DNA from: a virus
Lineage: Duplodnaviria; Heunggongvirae; Uroviricota; Caudoviricetes
Length of the DNA stretch: 4,065 nt
Direction: 5' to 3' (one strand)
IMG/VR virus record: IMGVR_UViG_2695420822_000018
Position 1 is the stretch's first letter. Every line of letters begins with the position of its first letter. Made by a program: the position numbers and the translations under genes. The notes beneath the pieces are model-generated. The model was not told where the DNA came from and ran no database searches. It worked only from the letters and a program-made list of their open reading frames with translations. This document shows positions 440 through 4,065 of this stretch, piece by piece.

Positions 440-859
440 TTATTCCGGTGGGGGATTATCTTTAATCCTGCCTCTCAAATATTTTTCTACATACTCATCG
501 ATTTCTTTTAGCCGGACTTCAAATAGCTCAATCATTCGTTGTTGTTCTGAGCCCGGTAGCTGGTTAAACAACTCAAGAAGTTTTCGTTGGGATTCATTTA
601 ACCACAATTCAGAAGATTCCTGTTCTCCAAAGAGGAGCTCAGGAGGAGATATGCCAAGTGCCTTTCCCAATACGACAGCGTCATGTACTCCAACATTTCT
701 GCTGCCCGCCTCATAGTTACCTATACGCGATTGCGTCCATCCGCAGATTTCAGCAAGTTTTCCTTGAGATAAACCAAGCTTCTGCCTGCGCTCTTTAAGA
801 CGCATTGCAATTTTGTCATTGAGCCTACTAGCGGCAATTTTTTCGTTTTCTTTTTCCAT
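440..859 (-). CDS. Prophage repressor, HTH XRE family, DicA/CI-like, 139 aa, with no LexA-like S24 peptidase domain
   Basis: ATG at 859-857 preceded by AAGGA; stop TAA at 442-440. N-terminal HTH (LGLSQGKLAEICGWTQSRIGNYEAGSR). The C-terminal motif LLELFNQLPGSEQ resembles the DicA motif LELLELFNALPESEQ as I recall it. Divergent to a Cro-like gene, the classic immunity layout. Confidence 0.85.
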   Translation of the reverse strand: MEKENEKIAASRLNDKIAMRLKERRQKLGLSQGKLAEICGWTQSRIGNYEAGSRNVGVHDAVVLGKALGISPPELLFGEQESSELWLNESQRKLLELFNQLPGSEQQRMIELFEVRLKEIDEYVEKYLRGRIKDNPPPE

Positions 860-2387: not shown

Positions 2388-3587
2388 ATGCTGTTTGTGC
2401 TTATTCTAAGCAACCGGGCAGCATCATACGGGGCAATTATGGCCGCATTACCATACATGCAACTGTACATAGCTGATTACCTGGCTGACACCATGCATTT
2501 GTCAGCAGAGGAGCACGGCGCGTATTTGTTGCTGATGTTCAATTACTGGCAAACAGGAAAGCCAATACCCAAAAACAGGTTGGCAAAAATTGCCCGTCTG
2601 ACTAACGAGCGATGGGTTGATGTTGAACCATCCTTGCGGGAGTTTTTTTGTGATAACGGCGACGAATGGATGCATCTTCGGATTGAGGAAGATCTGGCAT
2701 CTGTCAGAGAAAAATTAACCAAAAAATCAGCCGCAGGAAAAGCATCTGTTCAGGCCAGAAGAAGCAGAAAGGAAGCAGATGTTCAAACAAAACAAGAGAG
2801 AAATTTAACAGGTGTTCAAACAGATGTTGGAGTGATGTTCGAACATGATGCCAACACAAAGGCAACTAATAAAGATACAGATAAAGATCTAAAAACAGAT
2901 CTAACCCATCCCAAACCCTTCCCTTCCGGAAGGGAGTTTCGGGATTTTGTGGCTGGAGTGCTTGAGGGGAGATTATCTGGCGGTACTGCAGCGGAATTTT
3001 GTAATTCTGCGGTGGTTGCGTTGCAGGCTGCTGGCCTGGATGTCTGTCGTGAGTATCCGGTGCCAGAGCGTGGTGACGGTTGCGGAGGGCGGATTGATAT
3101 CGTCGTGACTGACAGGAACGGTGTCCGGTGTGGGAGCGAGCTTGACCGAAATTCTCCGCGACAGAAATCACTGCTCAAAATCGGTGCTGTTGAAACCGGG
3201 ATATGTGTCTTGCGGCGCAGTGATATCGCAAGGCACACCGAGCAGGGAATTCTGGTTATCGGTGGGGCTGTTCGCCAGAAAAAATTTGACCCGTTGTCAG
3301 TTGATCTGCCCGACTGGTTGCCAGAAACACTCTGGCATGAGTGGGTCCAGTTCAGGCAGGCATTGCGAAAACCGATTCGAACGGAGCAGGGCGCTAACGG
3401 GGCGATACGGGAACTGGAAAAATTCCGTCAGCAGGGTTTTACACCTGAGCAGGTGATTCGACACAGCATCGCCAATGAATACCAGGGTCTGTTCGCGCCG
3501 AAAGGTGTTCGGCCTGAGACGTTGCTCCGACAGGTTAACACCGTCTCGTTGCCGGACAGTGCGATCCCGCCAGGCTTCAGGGGGTAA
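2388..3587 (+). CDS. O-like replication initiation protein: DUF1376 (YdaU-like) N-domain, K/D/T-rich linker, Cys-containing central segment, DnaT-like C-terminal tail
   Basis: Long ORF, stop TAA at 3585-3587. An alternative start at 2439 (MAALPYMQLY...) is plausible because the first 17 residues (MLFVLILSNRAASYGAI) are hydrophobic and atypical. The C-terminus ...RQVNTVSLPDSAIPPGFRG matches the E. coli DnaT C-terminus (...RDVNTVSEPDSQIPPGFRG) as I recall it. It sits immediately upstream of the DnaC-like gene. Confidence 0.85.
   Translation: MLFVLILSNRAASYGAIMAALPYMQLYIADYLADTMHLSAEEHGAYLLLMFNYWQTGKPIPKNRLAKIARLTNERWVDVEPSLREFFCDNGDEWMHLRIEEDLASVREKLTKKSAAGKASVQARRSRKEADVQTKQERNLTGVQTDVGVMFEHDANTKATNKDTDKDLKTDLTHPKPFPSGREFRDFVAGVLEGRLSGGTAAEFCNSAVVALQAAGLDVCREYPVPERGDGCGGRIDIVVTDRNGVRCGSELDRNSPRQKSLLKIGAVETGICVLRRSDIARHTEQGILVIGGAVRQKKFDPLSVDLPDWLPETLWHEWVQFRQALRKPIRTEQGANGAIRELEKFRQQGFTPEQVIRHSIANEYQGLFAPKGVRPETLLRQVNTVSLPDSAIPPGFRG
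2743..2905. repeat. Iteron-like repeats (core TGTTC/TGTTG at 2747, 2780, 2813, 2825, 2836) followed by an AT-rich tract with two AGATCT palindromes; candidate phage origin inside the O-like gene
   Basis: Seen in sequence: cagatgttcaaaca, caggtgttcaaaca, cagatgttgg and gtgatgttcgaaca with 33-33-12-11 bp core spacing, then aaagatacagataaagatctaaaaacagatct. Established knowledge: the lambda origin lies inside the O gene and consists of iterons plus an AT-rich region. Origin function here is inference. Confidence 0.4.
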
Positions 3588-3593
3588 CAGACC

Positions 3594-4065
3594 ATGAAAA
3601 ATATTGCGACAGGAGGCGTTCTGGAGCGTATCCGCAGACTGACCCCACCACATGTAACCGCCCCATTCAGAACGGTTGCGGAGTGGCGCGAGTGGCAACT
3701 TGCTGAAGGCCAGAAACGTTGCGAGGAGATCAACCGCCTGAATCGTCAGTTGCGGGTGGAAAAAATCCTGAACCGCTCCGGCATCCAGCCGTTGCACCGG
3801 AAGTGTTCGTTTGCGAATTACCGGGCGCAGAACGACGGTCAGCGACATGCACTGAGTCAGGCGAAATCCATAGCTGACGAACTGATGACAGGCTGTACGA
3901 ATTTTGTGTTCAGCGGTAAGCCCGGCACCGGAAAAAATCATCTTGCAGACGCGATTGGCAACCGGCTGATGGCGAAGGGGCGTAGCGTGATTATCGTCAC
4001 CGTGTCCGATGTCATGAGCGTGTTGCATGAGAGCTACGACAACGGCAAATCCGGTGAAAAATTTT
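3594..4065 (+). CDS. DnaC-family replicative helicase loader (prophage paralog); 5' partial, continues past the window end
   Basis: ATG at 3594 with AGGGGG RBS. The translation MKNIATGGVLERIRRL...NRSGIQPLHRKCSFANYRAQNDGQRHALSQAKS...FSGKPGTGKNHLADAIGNRLMAKGRSVIIVTVSDVM aligns closely with E. coli DnaC, including the Walker A motif GKPGTGKN. No stop codon before the window end. Confidence 0.92.
   Translation, partial: MKNIATGGVLERIRRLTPPHVTAPFRTVAEWREWQLAEGQKRCEEINRLNRQLRVEKILNRSGIQPLHRKCSFANYRAQNDGQRHALSQAKSIADELMTGCTNFVFSGKPGTGKNHLADAIGNRLMAKGRSVIIVTVSDVMSVLHESYDNGKSGEKF

Follow-up and report, generated by a model that had tools for sequence, protein, structure and literature searches.

The 4,065-bp stretch of DNA analysed here (IMG/VR virus record IMGVR_UViG_2695420822_000018; hereafter the window) belongs to a Rac-type lambdoid prophage of Escherichia coli and covers its immunity and replication region, as indicated by its open reading frames (ORFs), Pfam matches, megablast comparison and synteny. 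It contains a ydaU-type replication initiator gene, and within this gene, at positions 2743-2905, a cluster of short repeats is followed by an A-rich tract, which together form a candidate replication origin. The gene was termed 'O-like' in the original prediction and is here named ydaU because its E. coli matches and the K-12 operon carry that label. The segment 2388-3600 is present in 1506 of 5426 complete E. coli genomes, where it is labelled ydaU and ydaV, the gene starting at 3594 being labelled ydaV or ATP-binding protein; an end-to-end match occurs in only two genomes. Compared with the Rac ydaU-ydaV region of many E. coli genomes, the window shows 65% coverage and ~96% identity, with the synteny racR-ydaS-ydaT-ydaU-ydaV, and the same operon is present in the prophage Rac of K-12 MG1655. 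This match and synteny place the element in a Rac-type prophage replication region, as would be expected of the Rac origin oriJ.

The repeat array and A-rich tract within ydaU

The following features make up the candidate origin and its genes.

2439-3587, plus strand: ydaU-type replication initiator gene (ORF; Pfam DUF1376; PHROG 6451 and 678)
2439-2807, plus strand: region coding for the DUF1376 winged-helix N-domain (amino acids (aa) 1-79) plus a subsequent long helix (aa 80-123), the presumed iteron-binding module
2534-2542, plus strand: upstream auxiliary copy GATGTTCAA, inside the part coding for the N-domain (GATGTTSAA scan)
2619-2630, plus strand: upstream auxiliary copy GATGTTGAACCA (repeat scan and GATGTTSAA scan)
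2743-2756, plus strand: weak repeat 0, CATCTGTTCAGGCC, a TGTTC half-site only, on the 11-bp lattice
2776-2789, plus strand: iteron 1, CAGATGTTCAAACA, with the near-palindromic core TGTTCAAACA (pattern scan; unchanged in most of 37 E. coli haplotypes)
2809-2822, plus strand: iteron 2, CAGGTGTTCAAACA (pattern scan; haplotype alignment)
2825-2856, no strand: 32-bp imperfect palindrome TGTTGGagtgaTGTTC/GAACAtgatgCCAACA around iteron 3 (inverted-repeat scan)
2857-2905, plus strand: A-rich tract of low stability, the presumed DNA-unwinding element (composition, duplex stability, AT peak of the family)
2897-2905, no strand: mosaic junction at which Rac-ydaU-type sequence ends and P0099-type sequence begins (sequence comparison)
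3594-4065, plus strand, cut by the window end: ydaV, DnaC/IstB-like AAA+ helicase-loader gene, presumed partner of the initiator (Pfam IstB_IS21, 9.6e-10)

The ydaU-type ORF is mosaic and codes for an N-domain, the segment carrying the putative origin, an extra middle domain and a DnaT-like C-domain. An in-frame ATG upstream, at 2388, is the start chosen by the Prokaryotic Genome Annotation Pipeline (PGAP), and homologues in other genera begin with MAALPY, which corresponds to 2439. DUF1376 (PF07120) is matched at aa 5-87 (E = 6.7e-25; 87.7 bits, above the gathering score of 30.1) and is the only Pfam family matched by the whole protein, with no match to lambda O. The designation 'O-like' is borne out for the C-terminal third, where aa 279-356 match PHROG 678 ('replication initiation O-like'), but this is the sole O-like match in the protein, and the DNA-binding part is DUF1376/YdaU and not a homologue of lambda O. 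The C-terminal aa 290-382 match the C-domain of DnaT (2ru8, E = 1.9e-4; 9zbt, E = 7.6e-4). Modelled by AlphaFold from 55 sequences, aa 1-125 form a helix-helix-helix-hairpin core and then a long helix (predicted local distance difference test score (pLDDT) 89.5). YdaU may thus consist of a winged-helix origin-binding domain, a linker and a DnaT-like domain, an organisation through which it would work like lambda O.

Five related repeats with TGTTC or TGTTG cores had been predicted at 2747, 2780, 2813, 2825 and 2836. These starts and their spacings (33, 33, 12 and 11 bp) are exact, all five fall on one 11-bp lattice (8, 8, 8, 9 and 9 modulo 11), in agreement with the predicted spacing of roughly whole helical turns, and the copy at 2836-2845 is the perfect palindrome TGTTCGAACA. 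All five are present but differ in strength: the 10-mers at 2780 and 2813 (both TGTTCAAACA) and at 2836 (TGTTCGAACA) are strong, the copies at 2747 and 2825 sharing the 5-bp half-site only. The pattern TGTTCRAACA is matched three times within 66 bp (2780-2845) and nowhere else on either strand of the window, its promoter/operator region included, against an expectation of 0.03 matches, and none of 200 shuffles attained the observed count. Iteron 3 is flanked, within its 32-bp palindrome, by the weak half-sites TGTTG (2825) and CAACA (2852), and its reading frame differs from that of the other four repeats. K-12 Rac has TGTTTGAACA as its third site, which repeats iterons 1 and 2 exactly in inverted orientation. 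In a MAFFT alignment, most of the 37 E. coli-type haplotypes keep all three core sites intact, and a few have single-base variants; an ungapped scan of 88 sequences is invalid past ~2850 owing to indels and mosaic junctions, and recombination dominates the variation among these ydaU sequences. The broader pattern GATGTTSAA (at most one mismatch) was seen nine times against 2.5 expected, including the upstream copies at 2534 and 2619, and K-12 Rac also has this upstream pair, as GCTGATGTTCAA and GCTGATGTTGAA.

An array of at least three repeated sites thus lies inside the initiator ORF (2743-2856), between DUF1376 and the C-domain, in the interdomain-linker segment to which the repeats had been assigned. 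The peptide motifs ASVQ, DVQT and GVQT quoted for this linker are indeed encoded there, but appear to be a by-product of the DNA repeats, since the 11-bp period found across the family does not repeat as peptide.

The A/T-rich stretch predicted to follow the repeats corresponds to 2857-2905, which is 71% A+T and 55% A and ties for the most AT-rich 49-mer of the window. No 40-bp duplex anywhere in the window, even in its promoter regions, is less stable than 2866-2905, which has a nearest-neighbour free energy of -41.9 against a mean of -55.1 (standard deviation 4.3), three standard deviations below that mean, and the repeats are therefore adjoined by an easily melted tract. This contains a run of hexamer repeats, ATAAAG-ATACAG-ATAAAG (2869-2886), as well as two GATC sites. 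The two AGATCT palindromes noted there have the coordinates given for them (2885-2890 and 2897-2902), but the second is not a conserved origin feature, K-12 Rac having AGATCC in its place; the notion that the pair is a designed part of the origin was rejected, as most alleles carry one site and the second marks the mosaic junction. On the minus strand of 2866-2905, GATCTGTTTTTAG and GATCTTTATCTGT match the oriC 13-mer GATCTnTTnTTTT at nine and eight of its 11 specified positions, respectively, a resemblance that is suggestive only, the second copy lying on the allele-specific junction. DnaA boxes (TTATNCACA, at most one mismatch) occur three times in the window (316, 598 and 926; 3.2 expected) and none is near 2700-2950. 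No Rfam family is matched in the window and no sigma-70-like promoter was found in 2400-3300, so that an RNA gene or an internal promoter is unsupported as an explanation for the element.

Repeats and AT peaks across the DUF1376 family

Searches with the N-domain (tblastn) identified DUF1376 genes in Pseudomonas phages (69, 62 and 54% identity), an Acinetobacter phage (36%) and others. In four phage homologues (Pseudomonas phages UFJF_PfDIW6, PfAn1 and AH02 and Acinetobacter phage IME-Ap7), the DUF1376 gene lies 3' of a small gene for a Cro-type helix-turn-helix (HTH) protein, and the gene after it carries a helicase-loader annotation in the three Pseudomonas phages and a hypothetical-protein label in IME-Ap7. 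Each of these genes has its own short repeats right after the conserved 'AAGKAS..AR' at the end of the N-domain: CGTTCAACGA, CGTTGAAAT, CGTTGAACGA and ACTCAACGA, with 11-bp spacing, in UFJF_PfDIW6, related repeat sets in PfAn1 and AH02, and AAACCCAAGTGGTT twice in the Acinetobacter phage. A purine- or A-rich tract then follows, for example (ATACAG)4-5 or AAGAAGAGAAGAGAAGAGAAGAGAA.

A scan of one genome per species yielded 80 more loci, and 62 non-redundant DUF1376 genes from many phyla were used for statistical comparison, with codon-shuffled versions of each gene as controls. In each gene, the densest group of 8-mer repeats falling within 80 nt was taken as the cluster, with both strands searched, up to one mismatch allowed and a minimum distance of 9 nt between copies. 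At least four copies were found in 42 of the 62 loci against 5.8 expected, at least five in 11 against 0 expected, and the clusters were centred at gene nt 300-430 in 28 cases against 10 expected. Spacings of 10-12 nt accounted for 76 of 180 (42%), compared with 8.7% in the shuffles, and at least two such spacings occurred in 22 loci against 0.5 expected. The sequences of the repeats differ between lineages and the spacing of ~11 bp is kept; an 11-nt period shifts the frame from one copy to the next, and no repetition shows in the encoded peptides, as at locus L125, where four 11-bp units encode SVRTHSERKANAEQT. The period, the frame shifts and the non-repeating peptides indicate that the repeats are selected as DNA. 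The AT content likewise peaks at gene nt 400-440 (+0.12 +/- 0.013 above the gene mean over the 62 genes), the most AT-rich 40-mer starting at nt 380-470 in 38 of them. At this peak most genes carry tandem hexamers, usually (GATACA)n, even in an Azotobacter gene of 65% GC, and the hexamer tract is conserved at the nucleotide level in Enterobacteria, Pseudomonas, Azotobacter and metagenome-assembled genomes labelled Planctomycetaceae. In genes of at least 53% GC, the D/T dipeptide tracts use GAT for Asp in 41 of 41 cases (72 of 193 elsewhere) and ACA for Thr in 43 of 43 (17 of 171 elsewhere), figures that are inflated by slippage and by the common descent of tandem hexamers, although their direction is clear.

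These results bear on the possibility that the repeats have no function at the DNA level and are a side effect, together with chance, of a duplication-prone linker (DVQT/GVQT, KDTDKD). Iterons 1 and 2 do lie in frame, 33 bp apart, and encode DVQT and GVQT, and the tract that follows encodes a D/T/K-rich linker in which slippage would readily yield tandem hexamers. Such an explanation is nevertheless highly improbable given that iteron 3 is out of frame, that the family spacing is mostly 10-12 nt with changing frames, that repeat counts lie far above those of the codon-shuffled controls, and that the codon choice of the D/T tracts is invariant and opposite to that of the rest of the gene in GC-rich hosts.

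Among 61 diverse loci, tblastn detects a YdaV-like loader downstream in only 15 and a DnaT-like C-domain in six, low numbers which suggest that the unit of N-domain and origin pairs with varied partners. Further repeats occur upstream, within the coding sequence of the winged helix (NDRWxxVExxLxEFF), in Kluyvera, Serratia and Pseudomonas homologues, as three to four CGTTGRA copies with 11-bp spacing (gene nt 165-215 in L097; also in L103-L105, L110 and L116, and at 2678-2718 of L004), so that this motif is written in all three frames. The window has only single copies in this region, at 2534 and 2619, the latter corresponding to the upstream clusters of three to four 11-bp-spaced copies in Kluyvera and Pseudomonas, located at gene nt 160-210 in L097, L103-L105, L110 and L004.

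Module exchange, oriJ and the proposed origin

From ~2900 onward, the ydaU allele of the window is 97% identical to P0099, a 376-aa 'phage protein' whose N-domain is unrelated to DUF1376. A GATC is common to both parents at the crossover, and the 37 haplotypes show no fewer than four alternative downstream modules, each joined precisely where the A-rich tract ends. GTTAC/GTAAC repeats are present in the P0099-type gene (L169 2822-2935), among them the palindrome GTAACGCTGGCAGCGTTAC; a (GAGGAA)n tract and an A/T-rich stretch come next, with GATATAAATACTGATCTAACCC after the (GAGGAA)n. As these repeats and tract occupy the same relative place, the layout holds for a second type of initiator. Junctions at the tract end and a common layout in a second initiator type are what would be predicted for an N-domain and an origin that make up a single specificity unit, and the two appear from these comparisons to travel together in this way, as in lambdoid O genes, which would explain why recombination junctions lie just after the A-rich tract.

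The clustering of mosaic junctions at this point could also be taken to mean that the element, while a real DNA site bound by YdaU or another early protein, is not an origin and serves as an autoregulatory or handcuffing operator, a transcriptional roadblock or a module-exchange boundary. The palindromic sites resemble operators, the extra copies 160-250 bp upstream in the gene could support looping, and the tie to replication is drawn from sequence features. A function of this kind is unlikely, however, as no copy of the motif lies in the promoter/operator region of the window, a repeat array paired with the least stable duplex, together with an AT peak throughout the family, is how origins and not operators are built, and the clustering of junctions is equally expected at the edge of a specificity unit of origin and N-domain.

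The region 2743-2905 is likely to be the replication origin of the Rac-type prophage, located inside its own initiator gene, and most likely corresponds to oriJ. The original prediction of a lambda-like origin, with repeats and a meltable A/T tract in the linker segment, is supported by the family comparison, the duplex stability, the winged-helix fold and the helicase-loader gene downstream. By analogy with lambda, YdaU would be produced by transcription from the early rightward promoter, and its DUF1376 winged-helix domain would bind the weaker half-sites as well as the three strong TGTTCRAACA sites, all of which share a helix face along the 11-bp lattice. Binding would probably occur as a dimer, since the sites have dyad symmetry. 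The resulting nucleoprotein complex could stress and open the adjoining A-rich hexamer tract (2857-2905), and the DnaT-like C-domain of YdaU, along with the DnaC-like YdaV, may bring the host DnaB onto the opened strands. We infer binding, unwinding, helicase loading and the identity with oriJ.

The origin oriJ has been known genetically since the late 1970s, and Potrykus et al. reportedly built oriJ plasmids in 2000. The K-12 RefSeq record NC_000913.3 is without an oriJ feature, no base-level description of oriJ was found in the literature within reach, and no link of DUF1376 or ydaU to an origin was found in the open literature. Rac has been reported to carry an active origin, oriJ (PMC3945230), and 'oriJ' qPCR (quantitative PCR) primers are given by De Paepe et al. 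2014 (PMC3945230, supplementary file 4). These primers amplify 155 bp, K-12 1,422,240-1,422,394 (L003 6241-6395, equivalent to window ~3853-4007), inside ydaV. The true Rac origin could therefore lie elsewhere, in ydaV at these primers or in intergenic DNA outside the window, the ydaU repeats being a relic or serving another purpose. This is very unlikely when set against the properties of the ydaV segment, which is of 48-58% GC and without clustered repeats; a search from racR to ydaW in K-12 found repeat clusters in ydaU only. In addition, a 155-bp qPCR amplicon near an origin reports copy number equally well, so that the primers do not define the origin, and the layout is kept in DUF1376 genes with differing downstream genes.

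Several observations weigh against placing the origin in ydaU. The support for binding, unwinding and replication is wholly bioinformatic, and the sole published oriJ coordinates found are those of the above primers, said to frame oriJ and mapping ~650 bp downstream. The Rac array is sparse, with three strong sites at 33 and 23 bp and not a tight cluster, and a few natural haplotypes have single changes in iteron 1. The N-domain model has no match of E <= 0.001 in the PDB (Foldseek), its winged-helix similarity being at fold level only. The count of 8-mer clusters is weak for any single locus (four in the window against a shuffle maximum of three, and four against four at many loci), the conclusions being drawn from count, position and spacing considered jointly for the 62 loci, and the inflation of the codon test noted above also belongs here.

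The element is best read as a lambda-type origin of a different, little-studied initiator family (DUF1376/YdaU), and is probably the oriJ of Rac at base resolution. The lambda origin has this layout of repeats and AT tract inside the initiator gene (PMC7466680). As in the gene O origins of lambda, lambdoid and Stx phages, initiator sites with internal dyads are arrayed midway along the initiator gene, in its linker segment, and an AT-rich tract comes after them; a gene for the helicase-loading partner is next, and both systems lie downstream of an early operon of cro/cII type. The sites in lambda are four iterons of ~19 bp, whereas those in ydaU are 10-bp dyads on an 11-bp lattice. YdaU further differs in its DUF1376 N-domain, which has no sequence match to lambda O, its DnaT-like C-domain, its partner, a loader of the DnaC/IstB-type AAA+ family and not lambda P, the GATACA-type hexamers of its AT tract and the extra sites inside the part coding for the N-domain. 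The K-12 Rac prophage is of the same type as that in the window; its ydaU is ~97% identical from the repeats through the A-rich tract and retains the three core sites, the difference being that beyond this tract the window allele continues into another module. In plasmids, iterons usually take the form of 17-22-bp direct repeats, located in non-coding DNA close to DnaA boxes. The ydaU sites differ from such plasmid origins with a winged-helix Rep (staphylococcal RepA, PDB 4pta; pPS10/F/R6K type) in being short dyads inside an ORF with no DnaA box near. The C-terminal ~90 residues of YdaU match the C-terminal domain of DnaT (primosomal protein I, of PriA restart), which explains the database label 'primosomal protein I'. 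YdaU is distinguished from DnaT by its winged-helix DNA-binding N-domain, its embedded origin and the absence of any sign of dependence on PriA/PriB, and it scores 15.6 bits with the NCBIfam DnaT model against a cut-off of 201.

The proposed origin provides testable, base-level coordinates for Rac, one of the most widespread E. coli prophages, whose origin is missing from genome annotation; the oriJ primers of at least one study lie in the adjacent gene. DUF1376, which formally has no known function, would be the winged helix that binds the origin in a group of phage initiators with the origin in their own gene, a rule that could serve to annotate origins in thousands of prophages and phages. 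More tentatively, and with considerable doubt, the hexamer tract, (GATACA)n and its variants, may be not just an AT-rich unwinding element but a sequence-specific assembly site, through recognition of single-stranded DNA by the DnaT-like C-domain, the loader or the helicase for instance, and DUF1376 genes a new, widespread class of phage origins with a defined consensus. If so, these genes would present an unusually dense overlap of protein and origin codes, with iterons running through a folded winged-helix domain in all three frames. Further work would best be directed at the rule for the family and at the conserved hexamer tract.

Downstream modules and the surrounding region

The remaining features of the window are as follows.

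440-859, minus strand: cI/RacR-like repressor gene
956-1198: gene for a Cro-like HTH protein
YdaS-like and YdaT-like genes, present as pieces
2906-3278, plus strand: extra middle domain (~115 aa) of the YdaU protein, outside the origin proper (alignment gap relative to K-12-type ydaU; PHROG 1347, function unknown)

The ydaV-type gene, of a loader family other than lambda P, starts 7 bp past the ydaU stop. The middle domain, absent from K-12 YdaU, is also found in a Salmonella YdaU (P0001) and in P0099-type initiators. It has no Pfam match even at E = 5, a word-index search identified only five relatives, and its AF2 (AlphaFold 2) model, from an alignment of five sequences, is poor (pLDDT 46.8). 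Its GRIDIVV...ELDR...RQKSL pattern is tentatively reminiscent of the PD-(D/E)xK nucleases of Vsr/DUF559 type.

Three of the alternative downstream modules each open with a G+C-rich palindrome 15-35 bp past the A-rich tract, namely TCCCTTCCGGAAGGGA (16 bp, window 2920-2935), CCCCCGGGGG (K-12 Rac, L003 5639-5648) and ACGCGCGCGT (the third type, L019 and relatives). A palindrome is likewise found to the right of the AT-rich region in lambda. The 16-bp palindrome of the window is overlapped by a terminator-like hairpin with a T-run (TTCCGGAAGGGAGTTTCGGGA TTTTGTGG; 2924-2944, plus strand) inside the ORF; such sites number three in 2400-3300 against 0.9 expected, which may be due to chance.

The part of the window upstream of ydaU, 1189-2375, resembles a scaffold with collapsed or alternative pieces. 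It contains runs of N (1332-1336, 2053 and 2249-2259), the segment 1189-1331 is repeated at 1626-1767, and the 3' end of ydaT is present three times (1938, 2044 and 2260) with N runs between the pieces. The complete genome FDAARGOS_944 has 758 fewer bases than the window from the cro start to the ydaU start. In this genome (L001 4001-5200, NZ_CP065613.1), the mosaic ydaU is annotated by the NCBI pipeline as two pseudogene fragments ('missing C-terminus' and 'missing N-terminus'); the same mosaic ORF is intact in the window (382/399 aa), and the annotation of this allele as pseudogene fragments is therefore wrong. An interruption of ydaU is seen in L013, L016, L088 and L089 (E. coli and Shigella), where the gene is broken right after TGTTCGAACATGATGC by sequence beginning with TGGATTTGCCCCTATATTTCC, a putative IS2-like end. 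This interruption follows the third iteron, inside the putative origin, and shortens the ORF to 591 nt.

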